Positions 4,999 to 29,896 of a stretch of DNA of 41,536 nucleotides are shown here, in pieces (position 1 is the stretch's first letter; every line of letters begins with the position of its first letter). The notes under the pieces were generated by a model that ran no database searches, was not told where the DNA came from, and saw only the letters and a list, made by a program, of their open reading frames with translations. This DNA comes from Candidatus Lloydbacteria bacterium RIFCSPLOWO2_02_FULL_54_12 (GTDB lineage Bacteria > Patescibacteriota > Minisyncoccia > Phycocordibacterales > UBA6899). A program made the position numbers and the translations under genes. The stretch is taken from the NCBI GenBank assembly GCA_001819095.1, contig MHLS01000002.1:11517-53052 (forward strand). Direction: 5' to 3'.

Positions 4999-6153
4999 GT
5001 GATGCGGTGGCAGGAACCCAAAGACGAAACACTTTCGATATTGCTCGAGAGCGTACGTCGGTTCGGAAAAGAGGAGATTGAGCCCGCTTACGGGAAATAC
5101 GAAGAGCAAGGATTTTTTCCCGCCGAGTTGGTGAAGAAGATGGGCGCAATGGGACTTTTCGGCCTCATGATTCCGGAGGAATACGGCGGGTCGGGGATGG
5201 GCACCGTGGCCGCTTCGTTCGTCGCGCGCGAGCTCGCCTATCGTTGGCCGGCGCTCCACTTGATCTGGACCGCGAACTCCTCGCTCGCGGCATTTCCGAT
5301 CGCGTATGCCGGAACGAAGGAACAGAAGGCACGTATCTTGCCCCAGCTCGCATCGGGCGAGATCCTCGGGTGCTATGCGCTCACGGAGCCAAACTCCGGT
5401 TCCGACGCAGGGTCGATGACCATGAAAGCGGAGTGGCGGCCCGATTCGCTCACGTGGAGTTTGAACGGCTCGAAGATCTTCATTACCAACGCTTTTCACG
5501 CGTCGGTGGCCGTCGTTTTCGCGCGGACAAGCAAGAAGTCGATCTCGGCTTTCCTCGTTGAGTCGTCCGAACCGGGCCTTCGCCATCCGGGAGTGACCGT
5601 GCGTTACATACCGAAACGGGTGCAGAAGAGCTCTGACTTCTGTGAGATCCATTGCAACGACGTGTTTCTTCCGGTTTCTGCGCTCCTCGGGAAGGAAGGA
5701 AAAGGATTTGCGATCGCGATGCAAACGCTCGACGGCGGACGGATCAATATCGCCGCGCAGGCGATCGGCATGGCGATGCGGGTCTTCGACGATGCGTATG
5801 CCTATGTGCATGTACGCAAGCAATTCGGCCGCCTCGTTTGGGAGAACCAAAAGGTGCAGTTCGACTTTGCCGAAGCGTACGCACGACTCATTGCGGCATG
5901 GGCGCTTGTCATCGAAGCTTCCGAGCGTCGCGATGCGGGGGAGAATATCACACGCATCGCCTCGTCGGCGAAACTGGTTGCGACCGAGACGGCGTGGAAG
6001 GTCGCTTCCGATCTCGAGACTTACTTCGGCGGGATGGCGTTCACGCAGGAGTCTGCGTGGCTTCCGCGTCTCCTCGACATCGCGCCGACGCGCGTGTACG
6101 AAGGCGCGAACAACATCCAGCACATGGTCATTGCGAAGCATCTCGACGACTGA
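4999..6153 (+). CDS. Acyl-CoA dehydrogenase
   Basis: AAGGAGGAG RBS. It carries GCYALTEPNSGSDAGSM (ACAD signature), a C-terminal YEGANNIQ catalytic-base region, and a typical length of 384 aa. Confidence 0.9.
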   Translation: MMRWQEPKDETLSILLESVRRFGKEEIEPAYGKYEEQGFFPAELVKKMGAMGLFGLMIPEEYGGSGMGTVAASFVARELAYRWPALHLIWTANSSLAAFPIAYAGTKEQKARILPQLASGEILGCYALTEPNSGSDAGSMTMKAEWRPDSLTWSLNGSKIFITNAFHASVAVVFARTSKKSISAFLVESSEPGLRHPGVTVRYIPKRVQKSSDFCEIHCNDVFLPVSALLGKEGKGFAIAMQTLDGGRINIAAQAIGMAMRVFDDAYAYVHVRKQFGRLVWENQKVQFDFAEAYARLIAAWALVIEASERRDAGENITRIASSAKLVATETAWKVASDLETYFGGMAFTQESAWLPRLLDIAPTRVYEGANNIQHMVIAKHLDD

Positions 6154-6157
6154 TTCG

Positions 6158-6178
6158 GTACAAGGTCGGACCTCGTAT
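6158..6178. repeat. REP-like palindrome, family 1 (degenerate short copy)
   Basis: The sequence gtacaaggtcggacctcgtat shares the core ACAAGGTCGGACC with the copies at 6221, 34675, 38551 and 41431. Confidence 0.6.
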
Positions 6179-6197
6179 CAATAGAACACGAATCACC

Positions 6198-6221
6198 AAG
6201 GAGGCAACTGCCTCCTTTTTT
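6198..6221 (+). terminator. Intrinsic terminator after the acyl-CoA dehydrogenase gene
   Basis: Stem ggaggc / gcctcc with loop aact, followed by T6. Confidence 0.75.
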
Positions 6222-6242
6222 GTACAAGGTCGGACCTTGTAC
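6221..6242. repeat. REP-like palindrome, family 1 (short perfect copy)
   Basis: The sequence tgtacaaggtcggaccttgtac is a perfect palindrome around one central base. Confidence 0.7.
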
Positions 6243-6271
6243 GGAGACGATGGTCGGATTAATATTGCCTC

Positions 6272-7804
6272 ATGAAATTTCTTGAGCGCGTATTCGTCCC
6301 GGCGCTTGTCGCCTTTCTTTTCGGTATCGGTTTCGCGGCCTATGCCCTCCCGTCGTTTGCATTCGGAATGCTCTTTCTCCTCGTTGGCGTCGCGGCACTC
6401 GCCCTCTCCGCGTTCTATGAGAATAAAATGCGTCTTTTACTCGTCGGCGCGTGCGCTGTCCTGTTCGCGCTCGGCATGTTTCGTTTCTCCTTTTGGGCGA
6501 GTGCGCCGGACGATCCGTCTCTTGTGGCGATCGTCGGAGAGACCGTTATCCTCCGCGGCGTCGTCATCGACGATCCCGATGTGCGGGAGAAGAATACGCA
6601 GTTGAAGTTTCGTATAGAGAAGATCGTCAACGGCAGTGAGGAGGTCGCCGCAGCAGGCGGACTGCTTGTCATCGTTTCGCGTTACCCCGAGTATCGCTAC
6701 GGCGATATGCTCGAATTCCGCGGAAAGGTCGTGCGTCCCAAGGAATTTTCCGGTGACGACGGAAGGGTCTTTGACTATCCGAACTATCTTAAGGCGAAAG
6801 GGGTCGCGTACCAGATCTTTTACCCCGACGTGCGATTGCTCGGACAAAACGGGGGCAGTGCCGTGCGCGCGAAACTTTTTCAAGCGAAGCATGCATTTCT
6901 CGATCGTCTCGCACTTGCGCTTCCCGAACCCGAGAATGCGCTCGCCGGCGGGATACTCCTCGGTGGAAAACGGTCGCTCGGAGAAGCGTGGACCGAACGT
7001 TTCCGCGAGTCCGGCCTCGTCCACATCGTCGTGCTCTCCGGCTACAACATGACGATCGTCGCGGAGTGGCTCGGGTCTGCGTTCCTCTTTCTCGGATTCT
7101 ACGGGAGCCTCGCCGTCTCCGCCTTCGGCATCACTATTTTTGCACTTACTGCCGGCGCCGGCGCGACGGTCGTGCGTGCGGCGATCATGGCGCTTCTGGT
7201 GCTTCTCGCGCGCCTCACCGGCCGGACCTCCACGATGGGAAGGACACTGCTCGTCGCAGGCGTGCTTATGGTCCTTCATAATCCGTCGATCCTTGCATTC
7301 GATCCCTCGTTCCAGCTTTCTTTCCTTGCTTCACTCGGCCTTGTGTTTGTTGCGCCGCTCATTCGTCTGCGCATCCACTTCTTTCGCTTTTTTCGCGGCC
7401 ATCCTGTCGTTGAAGAAGCGGTGGTTTCGACTCTCGCGACGCAAGTGATGGTACTCCCGCTCCTTCTTTATCAGACGGGTCTGCTTTCGGTCATTGCCAT
7501 CGCCGCAAACGTGCTCGTGCTTCCTTTCATTCCCGCCGCAATGATCACCGCTTTCATTACCGGTCTCGTCGGCTTTCTCGGAACTTTCCCCGCGCTTATT
7601 GCCGCGCTCCCGACACAGGCGCTTCTCTCCTACGTCCTTGCGGTGGCGAAATACGGCGCGGCGCTCCCGTTCGCCGCAGTACACCTCCCGCCGATACCCG
7701 GCTGGTCGGTCTTTCTTTTGTACGGAGTGCTCGCGTTCGTCATTTATCGGTCTTCGCGAGAGGTGTCTCAAGATGTAGAGGGTCCGCACCAAGTTCGTCG
7801 GTGA
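6272..7804 (+). CDS. comEC: ComEC/Rec2-family DNA internalisation membrane protein (no metallo-beta-lactamase domain)
   Basis: Polytopic hydrophobic protein with an N-terminal DUF4131-like region (DDPDVREKNTQLKF). It has the competence-domain motif ESGLVHIVVLSGYNMTIV. Confidence 0.8.
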   Translation: MKFLERVFVPALVAFLFGIGFAAYALPSFAFGMLFLLVGVAALALSAFYENKMRLLLVGACAVLFALGMFRFSFWASAPDDPSLVAIVGETVILRGVVIDDPDVREKNTQLKFRIEKIVNGSEEVAAAGGLLVIVSRYPEYRYGDMLEFRGKVVRPKEFSGDDGRVFDYPNYLKAKGVAYQIFYPDVRLLGQNGGSAVRAKLFQAKHAFLDRLALALPEPENALAGGILLGGKRSLGEAWTERFRESGLVHIVVLSGYNMTIVAEWLGSAFLFLGFYGSLAVSAFGITIFALTAGAGATVVRAAIMALLVLLARLTGRTSTMGRTLLVAGVLMVLHNPSILAFDPSFQLSFLASLGLVFVAPLIRLRIHFFRFFRGHPVVEEAVVSTLATQVMVLPLLLYQTGLLSVIAIAANVLVLPFIPAAMITAFITGLVGFLGTFPALIAALPTQALLSYVLAVAKYGAALPFAAVHLPPIPGWSVFLLYGVLAFVIYRSSREVSQDVEGPHQVRR

Positions 7805-20491: not shown

Positions 20492-20587
20492 CTAGGGGTG
20501 CTCCTCCACCCCGCTTGTGGCCCCACCACAAAAGGAACATTTCGCACTTTATCAAAGTGAGCGAAGGTGGTAGATTGGCGCTCAACT

Positions 20588-21226
20588 ATGGGAAAACCAC
20601 TACAACTTGTACTGATCGACGAAACTGGAGATCCTGGTTTTAAACTCGACGGCGGTTCGAGCCCAATTTTTGCCATTGGCATGGTTATATTTTCCGACTT
20701 TCTTGAGGCGGAAAAAACATCAGTTGCGATTAAGCAACTGCGGAGGGATATTTTTCATAATGATCACGCTGAATTTAAGTTTTCAAAGATACGGCCAGAG
20801 TTTCGCCACAGGTTCTTTGAGGCCATGGCACCATTTGATTTTACCGTAAGGGTTCTCTTGGTGGAAAAAGAAAAATTACGGAGCAAAAATCTCAAGTCAA
20901 ACAAAGGATCATTTTACAATTACTTTGTGAAAATGCTTCTCAAGCACAACAAAGGTACTGTCGCAAACGCAAGCGTGAAAATTGACGGAAGTGGAGACAG
21001 GGAATTTAAAAGAAAATTCTGCTCGTATTTAAGCGGAGAGTTAAACGCTCAGAATAGAATCGTGGAGAAGATAAAATTTGCCGATTCGCGCTCAGATGTG
21101 CTTATTCAATTGGCAGACATGGTGGTGGGTTGTGTTAGACGATGCCACGAATCCGAGAACAAAGAAGAGCAAAAGATGTTTGCCCTTCTTAAGCCAAAGA
21201 TCAGTGATATTTGGAAATTCGAGTAA
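20588..21226 (+). CDS. DUF3800 domain protein
   Basis: LVLIDETGDPG near the N-terminus and VLIQLADMVVG near the C-terminus fit the DUF3800 pattern (DE.G ... LQ.AD). ATG at 20588; the tracked ORF begins at a GTG at 20567. Confidence 0.65.
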   Translation: MGKPLQLVLIDETGDPGFKLDGGSSPIFAIGMVIFSDFLEAEKTSVAIKQLRRDIFHNDHAEFKFSKIRPEFRHRFFEAMAPFDFTVRVLLVEKEKLRSKNLKSNKGSFYNYFVKMLLKHNKGTVANASVKIDGSGDREFKRKFCSYLSGELNAQNRIVEKIKFADSRSDVLIQLADMVVGCVRRCHESENKEEQKMFALLKPKISDIWKFE

Positions 21227-21417
21227 AAGAAAACCCCCTTTCGGAGGTTTTCCCAATCTTCGAACCTATGCTGGTGTCCCAGCCACGCTACCTTAAGGTA
21301 ACAGTTCGGATGCGAAAATCTTTGTACCCTTATATTGCCTTATGGTACCACGCTGGTCAAGTGTACAACACGGGAGTCCCTAAAGGCGTTGAAAAATCTA
21401 GGGAATTAGGAAACACG

Positions 21418-21648: not shown

Positions 21649-24600
21649 ATGGCTGGTTTATTTAAGAACCGTATTATCAAGGAGAAAGCTGGAGTTTTCG
21701 GCATTTCCGATCTTGAGAAAAAACTAGCCATTGTAAAAAAGTGGCATGGGGCGTACCACGATACCACCTCAAGCAATGCGTTGAAGTCAAAGACCGAAAC
21801 ACAGTGCGAACAGGCCTTCAATCACGATTTTTTCGTTGAGATTCTCGGATATAAAACTTTTCCAAACGACGTTTACACCATCGAGCCGAAAGCAAGCACG
21901 GAAGCGACAGGACAAAAACCCGATGCGGCGCTTGGCTGGTTTTCGTCGCGCAAGGGGCGTGTTATCGCAGTGGTTGAGATAAAGGATGCAAAAACACCGC
22001 TTGATCGCTCGCAAAAACGCGAAGGGAACCTAAGCCCCATCCAGCAGGCGTTCAAATACAAGCCGCAGTTTAAGGACTGCGAGTTTGTCATTGCGACCAA
22101 TTTTTACGAGACACGATTGTTCAAGGACAACCAACTCGACTACGAACGCTTTACGCTCGACGAACTTATTGACCCGAAAGACGGCTATTTCAACTTCCGA
22201 AAATTTTATTATCTCCTTTGCGCGGAAAACTTCATTCGAGAGGAAGGAAAAACGGAAACGGCGAACCTCCTTTCCGAGATTCGCGAAGAGCAAGAAGAGA
22301 TCACGAAGGAATTTTATGAATTGTACCGGATGTTGCGCCGTGAGCTCATACGGGACATCGTTCGCAACAACGAAACAGCAAAGAAGCCGAAGAATTTCTA
22401 CAGTATCGCCGTTGAAAAGGCGCAGAAACTCATTGATCGCGTGGTCCTCGTCAGTTTTTTTGAAGACAGCGGATTACTCCCCGAGAAAAAGCTTAAAGAG
22501 GTGGTGAATTATGCGGCGAAAGGAGGAGTGGAGACGCCGGTGTGGGAGACAATGAAGCGATTTTTTGCCGCGATTGACAAGGGGTCGTCGAAACTTGAAA
22601 TCCCCGACGGATATAACGGAGAACTGTTCAAGCCCGATCCGGAACTTGACCAGTTGGTGATCAGCGACGAGATCTGCCGGAAATTTGTCGAATTGGGTAA
22701 GTACAATTTTACTGAAGATTTGAGCGTGAACATTCTCGGGCATATTTTTGAGCAATCAATCAGCGACCTTGAATCATTGCGTAATTTTGCGGAAAAGAAA
22801 GAGGGCGAAGCGGAAAAGAAAGACTCGCGGCGCAAAAAAGAGGGCATCTTCTATACGCCGGATTACATCGTGGATTACATCGTCAAAAATTCTCTGGGAA
22901 AATATCTTGAGGAAAAAGAAAAAGAAGTTTTTGGAAAGTGGCGCCTAAAAGAACATCTTTTGGATGATACCTACGACAAGCGTCTCCTTCCGGCGTATCG
23001 AGAGTACAAAGAGGACTTGTTCAAGATAAAAGTGCTAGACCCCGCCTGTGGCTCCGGCGCGTTTCTTGTGCGCGTATTTGATTATCTGTGTGACGAACAC
23101 AATCGTGTTGCCGAGGCAATGGAGGCGCTCGGGGACACGTCTGGCCTTTTTGATATGGAACTCAAGAAAAAAATCCTCGAGTGCAATATCTTTGGTGTAG
23201 ACCTTAACCGCGAAAGCGTCGAGATCACGAAACTCTCGCTCTGGCTCAAGTCGGCAAGAAAAGGAGAAAAACTCACGAACCTCTCGCGAAATATCAAATG
23301 CGGCAATAGTTTGATCGACGACCCTGCGGTTGCGGGCGAGAAGGCATTCGACTGGAAAAGAGAGTTTGAGGATATTATGGACGATGGCGGGTTCGATGTT
23401 GTGGTTGGCAATCCGCCGTATGTTCAATTGAGTAAAATTGAAGCGACGACCGAGGTCGAAAAAAACTATTTACTGAAAAAATACAACACATCAGGTGGTC
23501 GTCTGAATACTTTTATATTTTTTATCCATCTCGCCGAAGAATTGCTAAAGAAAAATGGCTCCCTAAGTTTCATAATTCCCAACACACTACTTACTCAAGA
23601 ATATTACGCAGATACCAGAAAATTATTGGTAGAGAAATTGTGTCTTGAGCAGATTGTAACTTATCCGCACATGCCCTTTGCCGGCGCTGTGGTGGAAAAT
23701 ATTACTTTTTTTGCAAAAAAAGCTCTCCTGAAACACATCGGCATATTTCAGCAAACTCCTGAAGAAATAACTCAGATTGGACAAATAAACCTAGCGGAGA
23801 TAGGCAAGAAAGAAAATTATTTAATCGACATTAGAAATGACAGTGTTTGTAGAAAAATAGACGCCCTGAAACTTCCTTTGTTGAACGGTATTGTAAATAT
23901 AAATCAGGCCATTGCCTTAAAAGGCGATAAGAGTCTGAGCGTCAAAGAAACTTTTAAGGACGGCTACTACAAGCTAATTGATGGTAGAAACATAAGTAGA
24001 TACGCACTTGCTTGGTCTGGGGAATACTTGGAATATGAGCTTAGTCGCATACATTCATGTAAAACCAAAGACATATTTCTTCAGCCGAAATTATTTTTCA
24101 GAAGGGTGTCCGCTGACCTTGTTTTCACATATGATGATGAAAACTATTTTGCCCTCAACACGCTTGTCGTCATAACACCAAAGACAGGAAAGAATGTCAG
24201 CCTAAAATCGTTGTTGGCCGTGCTGAACTCAAAACTCATAAATTACTATTACATCAACAAGTATAAGTCTACAAAAAAAGTATTTTCCGAAATACAGGCT
24301 CGAACCATTGGATTGATACCCACACCAGCACTTGATGGGCGATCTCTCGAGGAGAGGGCAGAGACAATGCTCCGAATGAATAAAGAATTTCACGAAAAAT
24401 TGGAAAAGCACCTCACCATCCTCAAATCAGACCTTGGGATAGAAAAATTGCCGACGAAACTGGAAAAGTTCTATGAACTGTCTTTTGAAGATTTTGTGAA
24501 AGCGGCGAAGGTTAAGGTGTTGCTCTCCAAAAAATCGGAACTTTTCGACTATTTCGAAAAAGCAAAAAGCGAACTCGCCGGACTCAAGGCGAACATCGGC

Positions 24601-24690
24601 GCAACCGACAGCGCGATCGATCAAATGGTCTACAAACTCTACGACCTTACCCCGGAAGAAATAAAAATCGTCGAACAGTCAACAAAATGA
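21649..24690 (+). CDS. Type IIG restriction-modification enzyme (fused PD-(D/E)xK nuclease, gamma-class N6-adenine methyltransferase and target-recognition domain)
   Basis: N-terminal PDAALGWF...VVEIKDAK (D...ExK), methyltransferase motif I VLDPACGSGAFL, motif IV VVGNPPY, and a long C-terminal TRD. Total length is 1013 aa. Confidence 0.85.
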   Translation: MAGLFKNRIIKEKAGVFGISDLEKKLAIVKKWHGAYHDTTSSNALKSKTETQCEQAFNHDFFVEILGYKTFPNDVYTIEPKASTEATGQKPDAALGWFSSRKGRVIAVVEIKDAKTPLDRSQKREGNLSPIQQAFKYKPQFKDCEFVIATNFYETRLFKDNQLDYERFTLDELIDPKDGYFNFRKFYYLLCAENFIREEGKTETANLLSEIREEQEEITKEFYELYRMLRRELIRDIVRNNETAKKPKNFYSIAVEKAQKLIDRVVLVSFFEDSGLLPEKKLKEVVNYAAKGGVETPVWETMKRFFAAIDKGSSKLEIPDGYNGELFKPDPELDQLVISDEICRKFVELGKYNFTEDLSVNILGHIFEQSISDLESLRNFAEKKEGEAEKKDSRRKKEGIFYTPDYIVDYIVKNSLGKYLEEKEKEVFGKWRLKEHLLDDTYDKRLLPAYREYKEDLFKIKVLDPACGSGAFLVRVFDYLCDEHNRVAEAMEALGDTSGLFDMELKKKILECNIFGVDLNRESVEITKLSLWLKSARKGEKLTNLSRNIKCGNSLIDDPAVAGEKAFDWKREFEDIMDDGGFDVVVGNPPYVQLSKIEATTEVEKNYLLKKYNTSGGRLNTFIFFIHLAEELLKKNGSLSFIIPNTLLTQEYYADTRKLLVEKLCLEQIVTYPHMPFAGAVVENITFFAKKALLKHIGIFQQTPEEITQIGQINLAEIGKKENYLIDIRNDSVCRKIDALKLPLLNGIVNINQAIALKGDKSLSVKETFKDGYYKLIDGRNISRYALAWSGEYLEYELSRIHSCKTKDIFLQPKLFFRRVSADLVFTYDDENYFALNTLVVITPKTGKNVSLKSLLAVLNSKLINYYYINKYKSTKKVFSEIQARTIGLIPTPALDGRSLEERAETMLRMNKEFHEKLEKHLTILKSDLGIEKLPTKLEKFYELSFEDFVKAAKVKVLLSKKSELFDYFEKAKSELAGLKANIGATDSAIDQMVYKLYDLTPEEIKIVEQSTK
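24643..24690 (+). repeat. Copy 0 (in-gene) of the RM-tail repeat
   Basis: The sequence gaccttaccccggaagaaataaaaatcgtcgaacagtcaacaaaatga encodes DLTPEEIKIVEQSTK*, the 3' end of the type IIG gene. Confidence 0.8.
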
Positions 24691-24783
24691 CCGTCGTGTC
24701 AACGGTCATTGCGTTTATTGAAAGAGTCTTATAAAATGTTACTATAGTTTCTACTCCTTTTTCTTTTTAGGCACACAAAATCT

Positions 24784-25152
24784 ATGGAAAGTTGGACATT
24801 AACTTGGACAAAACTTACAGGACTATCTAACAGTTCTGTAACAGCGCTTGCTGGTAATTTAGCAGGTGTTTATAGGTTTTCTTATTTGGCTGAAGATGGT
24901 AATTATTACATATTTTATGTTGGGCAGACAGAAGATATCAAAAAGAGATTATTGGAACATTTGTCGTCGAGTGAAACAAATGTTTGTATAAAAAATTATC
25001 TTTCATCAAAAAAATGTTTTTTTAGATATGCAAAGATAACCAAAGACTACATAAGAAATGCCGCAGAAAAACAGATGTATAAACAATATGAGCCAAGTTG
25101 TAATGAGAAAGAACCAAGTGGTCGCGATGACGTGAAAGTGAATCTAACATGA
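24784..25152 (+). CDS. Stand-alone GIY-YIG nuclease-domain protein
   Basis: GVYRFSY (GIY), YIFYVGQT (YIG), KKRLLEH (Arg/His), AEKQMY (Glu) and CNEKEP (Asn) occur in canonical order. It is 122 aa with no additional DNA-binding domain. Confidence 0.7.
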   Translation: MESWTLTWTKLTGLSNSSVTALAGNLAGVYRFSYLAEDGNYYIFYVGQTEDIKKRLLEHLSSSETNVCIKNYLSSKKCFFRYAKITKDYIRNAAEKQMYKQYEPSCNEKEPSGRDDVKVNLT

Positions 25153-25856
25153 CACTTACTATTTGTATCATAGCAAAGGATGGAGTTTTATTTGCTTCCG
25201 ATAGTCGCGCGAGTTCTTTCCTAACAAGTAACGATACAGTCAAGAAAATTTTTAAACTAGATGACCATAATGCAGTAGGCATTGCAGGTGATGGCCCCTT
25301 GGCCATGCATTTTTTTGACACCATTTCTCGCCAGTTAAATTTTCGCAATGGTATATCTGTTTTGGCAGAACAGATGCGCTCGCTTGGCAAAGCACGATTC
25401 GACGAATTTTTTTCTCATCAAGCGCCAAAAGATCGTCCGTCGTTAAGTATTATTCTTGCTGGTTACATGCCAGACGGAAAGCCAGAAATTTATACTCTGA
25501 ACAGTAATGACAACTTTGTTCCACGGAAAAGCCCGATAGGTTTTGAATGTATCGGGATACCAATCATTGCCAACTATTTACTTAACCGTTTATATGAACC
25601 AGACATTACCACACAACACGCCGCAGAACTTGCTACCTTTTGTATAAAAGAAACTAGCTCACAAGACAACCGCGTGGGTGGGCCTACGCAAATAGCTTCT
25701 TTTTCAGACACAAAACAGTATGCGGAGTTGTCGCGAGATGAAGTTGAAAAGATAGAGCAAAAATGTGACCAGTTTCGGTTGCTACAGAAGGGCAACTTTT
25801 ACCCGGAGGATAGCGCTGGCGGAGCAACAAATCCACAAGACGCAACAAGGTCTTAG
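25149..25856 (+). CDS. Proteasome beta-subunit/HslV-like Ntn hydrolase
   Basis: The start forms an ATGA overlap with the GIY-YIG stop. MTLTICIIAKDGVLFASDSRAS places Thr1, Asp17 and Arg19 exactly as in 20S beta subunits. VKKIFKLDD aligns with GKKLFQID (Lys33 region), AVGIAGDG matches, and QDNRVGG aligns with RDSASGG. Confidence 0.75.
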   Translation: MTLTICIIAKDGVLFASDSRASSFLTSNDTVKKIFKLDDHNAVGIAGDGPLAMHFFDTISRQLNFRNGISVLAEQMRSLGKARFDEFFSHQAPKDRPSLSIILAGYMPDGKPEIYTLNSNDNFVPRKSPIGFECIGIPIIANYLLNRLYEPDITTQHAAELATFCIKETSSQDNRVGGPTQIASFSDTKQYAELSRDEVEKIEQKCDQFRLLQKGNFYPEDSAGGATNPQDATRS

Positions 25857-25893
25857 CCCAGCGTTAAATAGGGGACAGCCCCTCCAAAGATAT

Positions 25894-25942
25894 GGCCTCA
25901 CCCCCCGAAGAAATAAACATCGTTGAGCAGGGAACAAAATAG
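25894..25942 (+). repeat. Copy 1 of the RM-tail repeat (orphan 3' end of a type IIG gene)
   Basis: The sequence ggcctcaccccccgaagaaataaacatcgttgagcagggaacaaaatag would encode GLTPEEINIVEQGTK* apart from one extra C. It is identical to copy 2 except for that C and the last base. Confidence 0.85.
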
Positions 25943-26035
25943 CCAATTCACATGAAAGAAAATCAATTTGAAACAATCAAGCGACATATTGAGCGCTCCT
26001 CGGTCTTATGCAAGAAGTATGTGAGCATGTAATTT

Positions 26036-27031
26036 ATGAAACACAACAACCGTGCGACGGCTGTTTTTATTGATGGTAGTTGGCTTTATTCGACCTCGCA
26101 TCGAATCAATAAAAAGATTAATTATGTCACGTTTTTCAATACTCTTAAAAAAAACTTTGGTCCGAAAGCGGAGATCCACTTTTTTGGTGCGATTAATCCG
26201 ACTGACAAACAACAGAAGAAATTTTATCTTCTACTTGAAAAAAGTGGGTATGTAGTACATTGTGTAGGACTTGTAAAAATAAAAATGGACGGGAAAGACA
26301 CTTTTTTTTCAAAGGGGTTGGGATTGGATATTGACTTAGCGGTAAATGCAATGAAAATTTTCCCCTCAGTGGGAAAGTTTGTTCTTGTTTCGGGTGACGG
26401 CGATTTTGCACCCCTGTTGAAACAAGCAGTTAGTTATGGGATTGGTGTGTCAATAGTTTCGCTACCATTTAGCACAGGGTATCTTTTAAGAAAGGTTGTC
26501 GGTGGATCTTTTGTAAACCTCGAAACGCTGATAGAAGAACGAAAAAGTGTTAAGAAATTACCAATATTGATAAAGAGTAAAGAGAAAAAACCATTGGTTT
26601 CAGGTAGTTTATATATAGAAAAAGGGGATTACTATGGACCGTACCTCCGCATAAGAAATTTAATGATGTCTGCAAAAGGCAGCATTACTATAATTGACTG
26701 GTATATTGACGATCAGATTCTTGCAATGATTAAACTTCTAAAAACCGAAATTGAAGTCACTATTTTTACACAACAGATAGAGCCAGCAGATTTTTGTATA
26801 CAGGTTAAAAAATTACGAGAGGAGGGTCGGTCAATTACTATTCACAAAACCAAAAGGTTTCACGATCGATTTATGGGAATAGATAATGTTTGGTGGCACA
26901 GCGGACACTCGTTTAAAGATTTGGGAAGTAAAGACTCTATGTTAAATAAAATATTAGAAAAAGAATCTATAAACAAATTAGTGCATAGCGTAGAAAAAGA
27001 AAAGAAAAGTTTAGCAGAAATTTGCAAATAG
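26036..27031 (+). CDS. NYN/LabA-like (PIN-fold) RNase domain fused to a PLD-like HDR domain
   Basis: The N-terminal part has AVFIDGSWLY and FVLVSGDGDFAPLL (NYN/DUF88 motifs). The C-terminal part has RFHDRFMGIDNVWWHSGHSFKDLG, an HxK-type PLD signature with Arg for Lys. Confidence 0.7.
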   Translation: MKHNNRATAVFIDGSWLYSTSHRINKKINYVTFFNTLKKNFGPKAEIHFFGAINPTDKQQKKFYLLLEKSGYVVHCVGLVKIKMDGKDTFFSKGLGLDIDLAVNAMKIFPSVGKFVLVSGDGDFAPLLKQAVSYGIGVSIVSLPFSTGYLLRKVVGGSFVNLETLIEERKSVKKLPILIKSKEKKPLVSGSLYIEKGDYYGPYLRIRNLMMSAKGSITIIDWYIDDQILAMIKLLKTEIEVTIFTQQIEPADFCIQVKKLREEGRSITIHKTKRFHDRFMGIDNVWWHSGHSFKDLGSKDSMLNKILEKESINKLVHSVEKEKKSLAEICK

Positions 27032-27050
27032 CATATTGGAATAGGTCTGC

Positions 27051-27098
27051 GGCCTCACCCCCGAAGAAATAAACATCGTTGAGCAGGGAACAAAATAA
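27051..27098 (+). repeat. Copy 2 of the RM-tail repeat
   Basis: The sequence ggcctcacccccgaagaaataaacatcgttgagcagggaacaaaataa encodes GLTPEEINIVEQGTK* in a clean frame with no gene body upstream. Confidence 0.85.
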
Positions 27099-27191
27099 CT
27101 CCCCACTACGGATATCGCCAAAGAGTAAAACGCGGGGTTGTTAGGCCTCGCGCTTTTTAGCTAAACATATTTAGTTGTTGTTATCGGGTAT

Positions 27192-27624: not shown

Positions 27625-28299
27625 ATGAGGACTAAATATGCATCGTTCATAAAAACCCTCCGGACAAAGAGGGGTGTTTCGCAATCCGAAGTAGCTAAGA
27701 AATTAGATATCTCACGTTCGTCGTACATCGCCGTTGAGCAAGGCATACGCGAACTTACTCTCGGAGAATTTGAAAAGCTTTCGGAAATTTTGGGCACATC
27801 CCTCGAAGATTTGGAGCGTGGGGAATTCCCTAATTACGAAAAATACAAGCAGATGATCCTTGCCTTTTTGCGTTTGAATAAAGATCTTACAAAGACAAAA
27901 CTCGCAAAACTTTTGTACCTGTCAGATTTCGGTTGGTACTACTCACATCTCGAGAGCATGAGCGGGATGCAATATCGGAAGATCCAATATGGTCCTGTTG
28001 CCGATACGTATTTTCGCCTCATTGATGAGATGACAACGAACGGTGAAATAACAATTGAGCAGACGGAGGGTGGGGCAATGCGCATCACCGAGACTCGCGG
28101 TGGAGCGAAAATCCCGCTCTCCGAGATCAGTGCGGACGAAATGCGGTTGATACAAAAAATCGACAAGAAATGGAAAGGGAAAAAAACCGCCGAAATTGTG
28201 AAGTTTTCGCATCAACAGATGCCCTTCATGTTTGCGGAACCAAACGACATTGTCTCTTACGACGTTTTCACTCAAGAAAATCCCGACGAAATTTATTAG
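27625..28299 (+). CDS. XRE-family HTH fused to a Panacea (DUF4065/SocA-like) antitoxin domain
   Basis: The N-terminal part has RTKRGVSQSEVAKKLDISRSSYIAVEQG (Cro/C1 HTH). The C-terminal part has KTKLAKLLYLSDFGWYYSHLESMSGMQYRKIQYGPV, matching the DUF4065 pattern. Confidence 0.8.
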   Translation: MRTKYASFIKTLRTKRGVSQSEVAKKLDISRSSYIAVEQGIRELTLGEFEKLSEILGTSLEDLERGEFPNYEKYKQMILAFLRLNKDLTKTKLAKLLYLSDFGWYYSHLESMSGMQYRKIQYGPVADTYFRLIDEMTTNGEITIEQTEGGAMRITETRGGAKIPLSEISADEMRLIQKIDKKWKGKKTAEIVKFSHQQMPFMFAEPNDIVSYDVFTQENPDEIY

Positions 28300-28301
28300 C
28301 C

Positions 28302-28694
28302 ATGAAGTACGAGGTCACCTTCAGGCCTTTTACCGAAAGGCATTTCATAAAGACATTTGCCAAGAAATACCGAGGTGCTTGGGACCGCACACTGAAAGGT
28401 CTGGAGGTGGAGTTCGCTTTCGTCGAGTTGCTTTTTGGAAAGCAGATTGCCGAAACGATAAGTACTTCTGGCGATAATGATATAAGAATTTGTAAAACCG
28501 AGTTTAAAATTGCGGGCACTGAAATGTCCCGCCACGCTTCGGGGAATAGGTGCATTATCGCAATACAAAAAAGCGCCATGACTGTGCACGTGCTCTTGGT
28601 GTACCACAAAGGGGACATTGACGGACCCAGTGAAACGGCCGCATGGCAGTCTGTCATTAGGGACAATTATCCCGAGTATGCGAAGTTTCTATGA
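28302..28694 (+). CDS. Putative toxin partner of the Panacea antitoxin (family not recognised; possibly RelE-fold)
   Basis: 130-aa ORF starting 2 nt after the antitoxin stop. The assignment rests on small size and position. GNRCIIAIQKSAMTVHVLLVYHKGD loosely resembles the C-terminal strand pattern of RelE/ParE-type toxins. Confidence 0.45.
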   Translation: MKYEVTFRPFTERHFIKTFAKKYRGAWDRTLKGLEVEFAFVELLFGKQIAETISTSGDNDIRICKTEFKIAGTEMSRHASGNRCIIAIQKSAMTVHVLLVYHKGDIDGPSETAAWQSVIRDNYPEYAKFL

Positions 28695-28726: not shown

Positions 28727-28768
28727 TATTACACACCAATAAAAATCGTTGAGCAAAGAACAAAGTAA
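28727..28768 (+). repeat. Copy 3 (degenerate) of the RM-tail repeat
   Basis: The sequence tat tac aca cca ata aaa atc gtt gag caa aga aca aag taa reads YYTPIKIVEQRTK*, the same tail with the EE codons deleted. Confidence 0.6.
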
Positions 28769-28789
28769 CCATCCATCGAGGATGGTTAC
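28765..28789. terminator. Perfect 10-bp hairpin at the right edge of the island (weak terminator candidate)
   Basis: Stem gtaaccatcc / ggatggttac with loop atcga, followed only by TTT. Confidence 0.4.
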
Positions 28790-28838: not shown

Positions 28839-29096
28839 TCACTCGTCAAGTATCTCAAGCGTGGCGATAACAGACGGGTTTTCGCTCGGAAGGTAGTGTA
28901 GGCGATCTCCGTACATCGTCTTCATTGCGCCAAAAAACTCGTCCGCCCAAGAGGGTGAAAGAGAGATGACACCGGAAAAGTCGATCTCGACATTCTCGGC
29001 GGCGGGGTCAATCGTCGGGCGGATGGCCGCAAACGCCTCCTTCCCTAGGGGGCGCGAGGTGAGCACCTGACCGAATTTTTTGAGTTCGATACGCAT
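28839..29096 (-). CDS. STAS-like DUF4325 domain protein
   Basis: MRIELKKFGQVLTSRPLGKEAF...VEIDFSGVISLSPSWADEFFG fits the DUF4325 pattern (..sR..G......v.ldF.gV..is.sfadEf.g). The ATG at 29096 lies 4 nt after the upstream gene. Confidence 0.65.
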   Translation of the reverse strand: MRIELKKFGQVLTSRPLGKEAFAAIRPTIDPAAENVEIDFSGVISLSPSWADEFFGAMKTMYGDRLHYLPSENPSVIATLEILDE

Positions 29097-29100
29097 GATG

Positions 29101-29826
29101 TTAATAGGTGATCTTGGCGATGGTTCCGCGGATGTTCCGATCTGCCAAGCGTATGGATAATTTTTTCGTCCCCTTCTTGATCTCTGCGACGGCAATTCCG
29201 GATTGTAGCGTCACACCGACACCGTATTTTTCAGCAACCTTTCGAACGAACTTCAGGCCGTTCCCTCTTTGTTCCGGTGCACGCCCCGATATACGCTCGT
29301 AGATCGCGATGGTGAGCGCCTCAATGTCGTCCTTGATGTCCGGTCGAACACGCAGAAGCGTCGCACGAATACCCACACCACGATCCGCGAGTACAACGAT
29401 GCGTTTCGGGAGATCGTACGCGAAGAAAATGCCGGTGACGTCGGGCCAATTCCCGATATTGTGATCGAAAGAGTTGTTGCCGATCTCTCCGGTCATGGAT
29501 GCGACGATTGGGGCGATTGCGCGAGTTTCCTCCTGTCGGTCAAGAAGGATCGCAAGAGTGTTCTGGCGCGCACGAAAGCGATCCGGCGTATCACAGTACA
29601 CCTCGGAAGGAAGTTCCGGAGGGGTGACACTTTCGGCCCATACGCGTGCGAGCGCGAAGAAGTCCTTGCTGAATCGCTCTATCGTATCGCGGTCGTAGTG
29701 CCGATGCCCGCCGGGGCTCCTTTCGGCCCGCAGTTTCCCGGACGCATCCCAGCGTCGAAGCGTATCGATCGAAACTCCAAGCAACTTGGCTACTTCGTTT
29801 ATGCTCATCATCCCATGTTTAGTCAT
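29101..29826 (-). CDS. MerR-type HTH fused to a GHKL (histidine-kinase-like/RsbW-like) ATPase domain
   Basis: MSINEVAKLLGVSIDTLRRWDASGKL (MerR HTH), N-box EIGNNSFDHN, G1 ADRGVGI and G2 QRGNGLKF. The start is set at the ATG at 29826 because the longer ORF (to 29877) would run through three direct repeats that look regulatory. Confidence 0.7.
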   Translation of the reverse strand: MTKHGMMSINEVAKLLGVSIDTLRRWDASGKLRAERSPGGHRHYDRDTIERFSKDFFALARVWAESVTPPELPSEVYCDTPDRFRARQNTLAILLDRQEETRAIAPIVASMTGEIGNNSFDHNIGNWPDVTGIFFAYDLPKRIVVLADRGVGIRATLLRVRPDIKDDIEALTIAIYERISGRAPEQRGNGLKFVRKVAEKYGVGVTLQSGIAVAEIKKGTKKLSIRLADRNIRGTIAKITY

Positions 29827-29846
29827 TGCACAGGTTACTATACCAA

Positions 29847-29896
29847 ATCTATGCAAATAGAGCAAATATCTATGCAATATTTACAGAATCTATGCG
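29847..29896 (-). promoter_or_regulatory. Three phased direct repeats ATCTATGC upstream of the MerR-GHKL gene
   Basis: The plus-strand sequence atctatgc occurs at 29847, 29868 and 29888 (spacings 21 and 20 nt). Confidence 0.5.

Follow-up and report, generated by a model that had tools for sequence, protein, structure and literature searches.

What does a proteasome-like protease do when its constant companion is a small protein of nuclease fold? The question is raised by two overlapping genes in a 41,536-nucleotide (nt) stretch (the window) of contig MHLS01000002.1 from a Candidatus Lloydbacteria genome. The first encodes a GIY-YIG-fold protein of 122 amino acids (aa), here called the GIY protein, and the second a 235-aa proteasome-like N-terminal-nucleophile (Ntn) threonine hydrolase, here called the protease. 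Their pairing, co-divergence and patchy distribution across phyla mark the two genes, at the level of sequence comparison, as a self-contained, horizontally mobile two-protein module. Its role has to be read from gene context, and the most likely one, to which we give a probability of roughly one half, is that of a conflict or defence module of the second-line or abortive-infection type. The pair is laid out as follows, in coordinates of the window.

24784-25152, plus strand: GIY-YIG-fold gene, minimal protein of 122 aa (open reading frame (ORF), Pfam PF01541, AlphaFold2 (AF2) model, Foldseek)
25149-25856, plus strand: proteasome-like Ntn threonine hydrolase gene, 235 aa (ORF, Pfam PF00227, AF2 model, Foldseek)
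25149-25152, plus strand: ATGA stop/start overlap of the two genes (ORF coordinates)

The shared ATGA implies that translation of the two genes is probably coupled. The pair sits in a low-G+C island that occupies ~20.5-29 kb of the window, with G+C fractions of 0.33 for the GIY gene and 0.42 for the protease gene, against 0.57 in the window flanks. An earlier sequence-only reading of this DNA had described both the ATGA overlap and the AT-richness, including the 16/60 G+C on the line at 24901, and a recount (24901-24960) agrees on each.

The identity of the second protein is the firmer of the two. Pfam PF00227 (Proteasome) matches it at E=5.7e-20, and the AF2 model, built from 18 homologues with a mean predicted local distance difference test (pLDDT) of 84.9, finds its best matches in the PDB among 20S beta subunits, those of Thermoplasma and Rhodococcus (Foldseek, E~1e-12, TM 0.8). 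The model has 1251 PDB matches at E<=1e-3, of which the top 50 are all 20S subunits, and HslV is absent among the best 50 structural and 60 sequence-profile PDB matches listed. The profile of the family matches archaeal alpha and beta subunits about equally, at E~1e-10. When the protein is aligned to the beta subunit of Methanocaldococcus (M. jannaschii), with residue numbers that count Met1, T2 corresponds to Thr1, D18 to Asp17, R20 to Arg19, K33 to Lys33, G47 to Gly47 and D173 to Asp166; the positions of Ser129 and Ser169 are taken by Ile135 and Val176. The sequence-only reading had recognized the Ntn hydrolase from the placement of Thr1, Asp17, Arg19 and the lysine, and had been unable to see the two serines; profile searches, the predicted structure and the alignment bear it out on all of these points.

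Conservation was counted over 56 complete protease homologues from related loci. The M1-T2 start, D18, K33 and G47 are invariant (56/56), which answers the earlier proposal that the N-terminal threonine be followed through the family, and the gene starts with ATGACN in all 19 genome loci described below. Because triad and Gly47 never vary, the catalytic triad is evidently under strict selection. The Asp166 position is kept in 47/56, and the hydrophobic residues at the two serine positions are themselves nearly fixed, with Ile at Ser129 in 53/56 and Val at Ser169 in 55/56. Membership of the proteasome homologues is defined by the catalytic triad plus Gly47 (Fuchs et al., 2021, PMC8665760), so that loss of the serines lowers confidence in 20S-like kinetics and not in family membership. 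Taking together predicted fold, Thr start and Asp17, Lys33 and Gly47, the 235-aa protein is, as far as these comparisons reach, a proteasome-like Ntn hydrolase. It has no propeptide and starts directly at Met-Thr, and we assume that Thr1 is exposed by removal of Met1. Its C-terminal part carries an H5-like helix at residues 196-217 and a FYPE motif that is conserved, followed by a disordered polar tail. In one related locus, L008, the protease gene (6001-6706) seems to be frameshifted, possibly as a pseudogene or through an assembly error.

The fold of the first protein is identified by a more modest margin. The Pfam PF01541 match (23.3 bits, E=8e-5) just exceeds the threshold of 22.6 bits, the AF2 model is confident for a core of residues 5-86, and the best Foldseek match of the model is the GIY-YIG domain of UvrC, 1yd6 (E=7e-4, TMt 0.62). 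The characteristic elements follow one another in order: GVY (28-30), YVG (45-47), R55, H59, E95 and N107. In the register of the family profile, Y30, Y45, R55, H59, E95 and N107 fall on UvrC Y19, Y29, R39, Y43, E76 and N88. The protein is thus predicted to be a marginal but genuine minimal GIY-YIG fold, as the sequence-only reading had proposed from the order of the elements. It is a single domain with no DNA-binding or targeting domain, carrying a conserved N-terminal extension of ~25 aa (W8, L11) and a C-terminal tail (P111, N120).

The window copy of the GIY protein retains the complete catalytic set, and so do 34/66 members of the GIY family. In the remainder the set is eroded in several ways: of the 66 members, 14 have Lys in place of the catalytic Arg, 11 have Glu and 6 some other residue, a replacement that is non-conservative in 17; the His has become Leu or Ile in 13, and the first Tyr Phe in 9. 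About a fifth of the copies thus have Lys for Arg, and roughly a further fifth are without both Arg and His, and in many cases without the Tyr too. The family-wide conservation of these residues that would be expected under selection for nuclease activity is not observed. Other positions do not vary: W8, R31 and G47 are invariant over the 66 members, N107 and N120 occur in every member that covers the position in question, and P111 is found in 61/62. In one locus, L019, the reading frame of the GIY gene (223-591) is interrupted by a stop codon, which may again point to a pseudogene or an assembly error.

How closely do the two genes belong together? A search for the protease family in one genome per GTDB species yielded 19 loci, and a GIY homologue lies immediately upstream of the protease gene in 19/19, at a spacing that ranges from a 4-nt overlap to a 7-nt gap. 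The reverse search, in which metagenomes were queried with the GIY family, gave 50 loci, 47 of them with room downstream, and a protease gene adjoins the GIY gene in 45 of the 47; here the tblastn matches of the two genes are at most ~16 nt apart, except in L061 (38) and in the partial L042. The co-occurrence that the sequence-only reading had asked about is therefore near-complete, at 64/66 related loci with room, and extends down to 35-40% identity. The two exceptions that have no protease gene, L059 and L063, encode GIY relatives that are shorter and lack the C-terminal tail. At L059 (1297-3226), the genes that follow the tail-less relative are HEPN_AbiV and NYN, and an NYN gene is also found in the next cassette of the window.

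The identities of the two proteins to their window copies correlate with r=0.90 over 60 loci, which are not phylogenetically independent. Nonsynonymous divergence (dN) is 0.07-0.32 for both genes and synonymous divergence (dS) is saturated, so that dN/dS lies far below 1 and both genes are under purifying selection; both ORFs have stayed intact in dozens of loci. It could be asked whether two unrelated ORFs have simply come to lie side by side, or been annotated so, in an AT-rich insert, and the barely sufficient Pfam score of the GIY protein would lend itself to such an account; the adjacency in 64 of 66 loci, the co-divergence and the low dN/dS of both genes refute it.

DNA similarity between loci spans 24780-25848 only, i.e. 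the two ORFs. Hosts of the pair include Saccharibacteria, Parcubacteria/Paceibacterota, Berkelbacteria, Planctomycetota, Bacteroidota, Gammaproteobacteria and one bin labelled archaeal, mainly ultra-small groundwater bacteria. Protein identity to the window copy reaches 87% in the Planctomycetota copy and 79% in the bin labelled archaeal, and identity of up to 87% across phyla indicates that the pair moves horizontally. Proteins identical to the window pair (P0001, P0121) are deposited under three Candidatus Lloydbacteria assemblies, and an identical pair also occurs in a bin labelled Alphaproteobacteria (RIFCSPLOWO2_12_FULL_40_11), a label that is probably a binning artefact. No relative was found in IMG/VR, INPHARED phages or PLSDB plasmids.

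Mobility of this kind might suggest a selfish element, in which the GIY protein is a free-standing homing-type endonuclease directed to conserved sites such as the 3' ends of restriction-modification (RM) genes and the protease is its cargo. GIY-YIG is a classic homing-endonuclease fold. Conservation that stops at the borders of the two ORFs, very varied genomic contexts that include conserved housekeeping neighbourhoods, repeated placement of the pair just behind RM genes, and IS1595 and tRNA genes near some loci are all compatible with homing. The 122-aa GIY protein, however, has no domain for DNA binding or targeting; entire clades have retained the pair while its catalytic residues eroded; no copy was found in the phage, virus and plasmid collections named above; and no conserved target sequence or flanking repeat recurs across loci. 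Strong purifying selection and invariant catalytic residues in the supposed cargo suggest, moreover, that the unit exists for the sake of the protease. We consider homing very improbable.

A different route of entry is suggested by one locus, L061, where the pair is bracketed by direct repeats of 42 nt and 26 nt (177-295 and 1789-1863; 95-96% identical). A tRNA-Asp gene (160-235) shares its 3' end with the upstream one of the two 26-nt copies, which is what a tRNA-integrated island would show. We considered tRNA-linked integration as a general route and set it aside as a minor one, since tRNA genes were found in 7 of the 41 loci scanned.

The two proteins are thus inherited together but conserved in different ways, and this asymmetry guides our view of the mechanism. 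Because Arg, His or Tyr is lost in part of the GIY family, the nuclease cannot be the universal effector. The sequence-only reading had considered a nuclease effector gated or activated by the protease, and this fits poorly, the protease residues being constant in 56/56 and the GIY Arg, His and Tyr varying over the 66 members. Protease residues that never change, GIY nuclease residues that are dispensable in whole clades, and a GIY N-terminal extension and tail that are kept, the tail being absent only from the two unpaired relatives, together suggest that the conserved job of the GIY protein is binding. The simplest reading is that the GIY protein binds the protease, and probably nucleic acid as well, and that selection maintains the activity of the protease.

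We suggest that the constant enzymatic core of the module would be an active proteasome-type threonine protease that works without propeptide, alpha ring or ATPase, and that translational coupling would have it produced in step with its GIY partner, the two probably acting as a complex. The GIY subunit would serve as a nucleic-acid-facing adaptor or sensor that couples a DNA-related cue to proteolysis, and would dock onto the protease by way of its C-terminal tail, which is conserved and partner-specific. HslU activates HslV through C-terminal tails, which offers a model for the proposed docking; by analogy with these tails and with ATP-independent activators of the proteasome, docking might also control the protease. 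Copies with a full Y-Y-R-H-E-N set, that of the window included, would probably cut DNA in addition, with protease activity always required and the protease as the constant effector. Complex formation, the role of the tail, the assignment of sensor and executioner, and the defence phenotype are all points that we infer.

The same two-gene architecture could also be read as an addiction module, similar to a toxin-antitoxin (TA) system, that stabilises islands or RM cassettes: the GIY nuclease would be the toxin, degraded or sequestered by the co-translated protease, and loss of the locus or shut-off of its expression would free the nuclease. The compact, translationally coupled arrangement, the patchy distribution through horizontal transfer, TA-type and RM neighbours that are themselves addictive, and the complete catalytic set of the window GIY protein agree with this. 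It is difficult to see, however, why the presumed toxin should be without its catalytic Arg, His and Tyr in about a fifth of the family when the presumed antitoxin keeps every catalytic residue. The toxin-first gene order is atypical, there is no DNA-binding autoregulator, and we know of no TA system that has a protease as antitoxin. A Type II TA system in particular, whose antitoxin is small, labile and DNA-binding and neutralises its toxin by binding it, is disfavoured, as neither protein has a helix-turn-helix (HTH), ribbon-helix-helix or AbrB domain in Pfam and the second is an enzyme with invariant catalytic residues. Addiction, including the release of the nuclease upon loss of the locus, is in our judgement unlikely, though it deserves to be kept in mind.

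The role proposed for the module as a whole depends on the company it keeps. All-against-all clustering of neighbouring genes gave no third conserved gene beside the pair, and RM methyltransferases were the only recurrent neighbours; these RM genes lie upstream on the same strand. Among 28 non-redundant pair loci with at least 1.5 kb of upstream sequence (near-identical loci removed), 9 have an RM system co-directionally upstream. In L021, L024, L025-30, L056 and L020 a Type II N6/N4 methyltransferase is followed by a second gene and then by the pair. Of these, L021, L024 and L025-30 leave just 2-5 nt before the GIY gene, and the second gene of L024 encodes a bona fide Type II restriction endonuclease (PADLOC E=1.5e-79). 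A methyltransferase-Mrr fusion lies upstream of the pair in L004, and homologous Type IIG enzymes lie directly upstream in the window, L033 and L055. On the downstream side, where two genes behind each pair were scanned, about 8 of 52 neighbours have PADLOC matches, namely AbiEi/AbiEii, SduA (Shedu), SspH, mad8, PD-T4-6, PDC-S18 and PDC-S05/NYN. IS1595 genes occur near the pair in some loci. No ATPase, alpha-subunit or Pup-like gene is consistently nearby in the window and 68 related loci, in line with what the sequence-only reading had noted for the window alone, where it had looked for ubiquitin-like genes as well.

It is from mobility, atypical G+C, a position behind RM operons and the defence genes nearby that a conflict or defence role emerges as the best guess, with the probability of about 0.5 given above. 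We consider it possible, more tentatively, that the pair represents a new type of prokaryotic immune or conflict module. Its executioner would be the proteasome-type threonine protease, switched on by a tail-docked GIY subunit in place of ATPase or activator caps, so that recognition of foreign or damaged DNA, or a failure of the adjacent restriction system, would be coupled to proteolysis.

Several observations weigh against these proposals. Many loci lie amid housekeeping genes (DnaA/DnaN, RNA polymerase, ribosomal proteins, tRNA synthetases), and the frequency of RM and defence neighbours is no more than suggestive, as the counts come from short contigs and are uncorrected for genome-wide background. 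PADLOC v2 gives no match for the protease and only weak ones for the GIY protein (PRTase_III-A, PDC-S14 and UzuA, E 7e-5 to 4e-3). Hydrophobic equivalents of Ser129 and Ser169, together with loss of Asp166 in 9/56 homologues, make protease activity likely but not certain. The AF2 model of GIY residues 87-122, which include the tail, is poor, and the proposed complex and tail docking draw on conservation patterns and on the two tail-less solo relatives.

The housekeeping surroundings also call to mind an accessory repair function, for example removal of DNA-protein crosslinks or of stalled proteins bound to DNA, with the protease digesting the adduct and a UvrC-like GIY nuclease incising the DNA. 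A pairing of protease and nuclease is logical for crosslink repair, as SPRTN/Wss1 and proteasome-dependent repair illustrate. The GIY protein is closest to the UvrC incision domain in both structure and sequence, and several loci lie amid replication and transcription genes. The distribution, on the other hand, is patchy, horizontally transferred and of atypical G+C, RM and defence genes are frequent among the neighbours, and nuclease residues are lost in part of the GIY family. N6/N4 methyltransferases such as those nearby, moreover, form no covalent DNA adducts. We regard a repair role as improbable.

A defence role is also in keeping with the island around the window pair, where genes for a Type IIG RM enzyme and an NYN/PDC-S05 protein are found together with a Panacea TA-type pair and a DUF3800 gene. 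The RM gene lies directly upstream and forms the context of the pair, being outside the pair itself. The features are listed below.

20567-21226: DUF3800 gene, 5' of the RM gene
21649-24690, plus strand: Type IIG RM enzyme, Eco57I/MmeI-like (Eco57I/MmeI_Mtase/TaqI_C), 1013 aa (Pfam; PADLOC REase_MTase_IIG, E=9e-117)
24686-24710, plus strand: terminator-like hairpin (inverted repeat) right behind the RM stop codon (repeat scan)
24718-24745, plus strand: promoter-like site (TTGAAA, 16-nt spacer, TG, TACTAT), 39 nt 5' of the GIY start codon (weak; consensus scan only)
26036-27031, plus strand: neighbouring cassette, NYN nuclease domain fused to a C-terminal PDC-S05 domain (Pfam, PADLOC)
27625-28694, plus strand: neighbouring cassette, HTH and SocA/Panacea antitoxin-type gene (27625-28299), then a 130-aa ORF (28302-28694)
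28839-29877, minus strand: gene with a MerR-type HTH N-terminus (258 aa), then a DUF4325 (STAS-like) gene; right edge of the low-G+C island

The hairpin and the promoter-like site between the RM and GIY genes weakly suggest that the pair may have a transcript of its own. In Pfam scans of those island ORFs that were checked, no integrase or recombinase was seen. An Rfam scan of the window gave a single match, a DUF3800-IX RNA motif (45 bits, E=1.3e-6) at 21252-21319 on the minus strand, directly behind the DUF3800 gene and unrelated to the pair.

A striking aspect of this island is a set of four direct repeats, where no match would be expected by chance, that copy the end of the RM gene.

24638-24693, plus strand: RM-tail repeat copy 1, the authentic 3' terminus of the Type IIG RM gene (ending …LYDLTPEEIKIVEQSTK and stop codon)
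25890-25945, plus strand: copy 2, what is left of a decayed coding sequence, 1 nt inserted; closes the GIY and protease cassette
27046-27101, plus strand: copy 3; closes the NYN cassette
28738-28771, plus strand: copy 4, of only 34 nt; closes the HTH-Panacea cassette, with a perfect hairpin behind it

Three successive cassettes between 24638 and 28771 (GIY and protease, NYN/PDC-S05, the Panacea pair) are therefore each closed by a direct copy of the final 34-55 nt of the RM gene, its stop codon among them. The 1-nt insertion in copy 2 indicates that the RM-tail copies are decaying remnants. The pattern fits serial integration of circular cassettes, Campbell-type or site-specific, at the 3' terminus of the RM gene. 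The array looks like serial cassette capture, a property of this island and not of the pair. We also considered that the repeats might be integron attC sites and dropped the idea, given their conserved sequence, single orientation and origin in the 3' end of a gene. The sequence-only reading had remarked that RM-tail copies flank the pair, and copies 1 and 2 do lie on either side of it; as a mark of the pair the repeats did not survive comparison. The repeat DNA pattern has no match around the pair in related loci, where DNA similarity stops at the ORF borders, and the RM-tail peptide is absent from these loci except as the true tail of the L033 RM gene. Nor were significant repeats between upstream and downstream flanks found across related loci, other than the tRNA-linked ones in L061. 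Presence/absence polymorphism of the cassettes was not seen either: the 24 contigs read that encode an identical RM protein show the same island where they are long enough.

We then considered how far the GIY partner extends through the wider protease family. An exhaustive profile search over 1.84 billion representatives returned 907 matches at E<=1e-3; 235 clusters still match at E<=1e-10 and 34 at 1e-30, and nearly all of the sequences examined start with MT or MS at residue 1. A sister group, P0230-like, comprises more than 430 proteins, and the GIY partner is absent from those of its loci that were examined. The GIY pairing would accordingly have arisen as an innovation in a single subfamily, part of a mobile group of proteasome homologues that exchange partners. 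In two of the P0230-like loci, L079 (4765-4956) and L081 (4701-4943), the protease gene is overlapped at its 3' end by an ORF of 63-80 aa; these small ORFs share the motif I(T/I)PYDP..ANQT (PYDP..ANQT) and may encode an alternative small partner or a substrate. In L083-L085 (P0396 loci), genes of the sister family adjoin IS91-type (Y2) and IS1-type transposases and a phage-type integrase, which suggests that the wider family is mobile as well.

These findings have implications for a group of proteins that has been difficult to place. Apart from HslV and the actinobacterial 20S, bacterial proteasome homologues are not known to have a function, and a near-obligatory, coupled partner gives one such family a testable hypothesis. 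Should the proposed role be right, it would be the first functional context for an orphan bacterial proteasome homologue and the first proteasome-family protease in anti-phage defence, a new protease class in prokaryotic immunity; a defensive module would also point to ATP-independent control of a proteasome-type protease. Patescibacteria are thought to depend mainly on RM systems for defence (PMC12455944), and an RM-linked accessory module that spreads among them would alter the picture of how ultra-small bacteria defend themselves. The RM-tail-delimited array may show how modules accumulate behind RM genes. No description of a module of GIY-YIG protein and proteasome homologue was found in PADLOC v2 or the literature, as the sequence-only reading had supposed; if a defence role is confirmed, the pair could be a new class.

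How, finally, does the pair compare with known systems? With the 20S beta subunits (archaeal PsmB, actinobacterial PrcB) the protease shares the alpha-beta-beta-alpha Ntn fold, Thr1, Asp17, Lys33 and Gly47, in most members Asp166, and an H5-like helix. In contrast to the canonical 20S, which has an alpha subunit, a propeptide and an ATPase/Pup system, the pair locus has none of these, and no second PF00227 gene recurs. The protease differs further in being equidistant by sequence from alpha and beta subunits, in the near family-wide Ile and Val at the serine positions, and in its FYPE motif, polar tail and obligate GIY-YIG partner.

HslVU (ClpQY) offers a parallel in organization, a two-gene unit in which a proteasome-like protease starting at Met-Thr is encoded together with a partner on which it depends. 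That partner is an AAA+ unfoldase, however, whereas here it is a 122-aa GIY-YIG-fold protein and no hslU is present; HslVU is a housekeeping system, the pair is sporadic and horizontally distributed, and the best PDB matches of its protease are 20S subunits and not HslV.

The orphan homologues (Anbu, BPH, WPH, PHI, PMI and others; PMC8665760) resemble the protease in having no propeptide and no AAA+ partner and in keeping the triad and Gly47. WPH/group II is similar also in resembling both alpha and beta subunits and in its long H5 helix, a resemblance short of assignment to a named family of Fuchs and colleagues. The sequence-only reading had listed HslV, Anbu, BPH and the 20S as the known homologues, a list that omits the 22 orphan families described by Fuchs, Alva and Lupas (2021; PMC8665760). 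For none of those families did that survey, the most complete to date, report informative genomic context, whereas the protease described here has a near-obligatory GIY-YIG partner.

For the GIY protein, the nearest relatives are the N-terminal GIY-YIG domain of UvrC and minimal stand-alone GIY-YIG proteins; the window protein lines up with the catalytic residues Y, Y, R, H/Y, E and N. It departs from these relatives in its marginal Pfam score, its 25-aa N-terminal extension, its partner-specific C-terminal tail and the replacement of Arg, His or Tyr in part of the family. Free-standing GIY-YIG homing endonucleases have a targeting domain and a defined target site and reside in phages, introns or inteins; the window protein has neither such a domain nor phage matches.

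In functional terms, an effector pair within or behind an RM operon recalls PrrC with EcoprrI, and a protease in an immune-type module recalls CalpL/Craspase and gasdermin with its protease. This is an analogy of function only, as these systems have no sequence or structural relationship to the pair and none is known to use a proteasome-type protease or a GIY-YIG partner. In other words, the proteasome-like fold is known, and what appears to be new here is a subfamily of orphan proteasome homologues with an obligate GIY partner and an RM-linked context.

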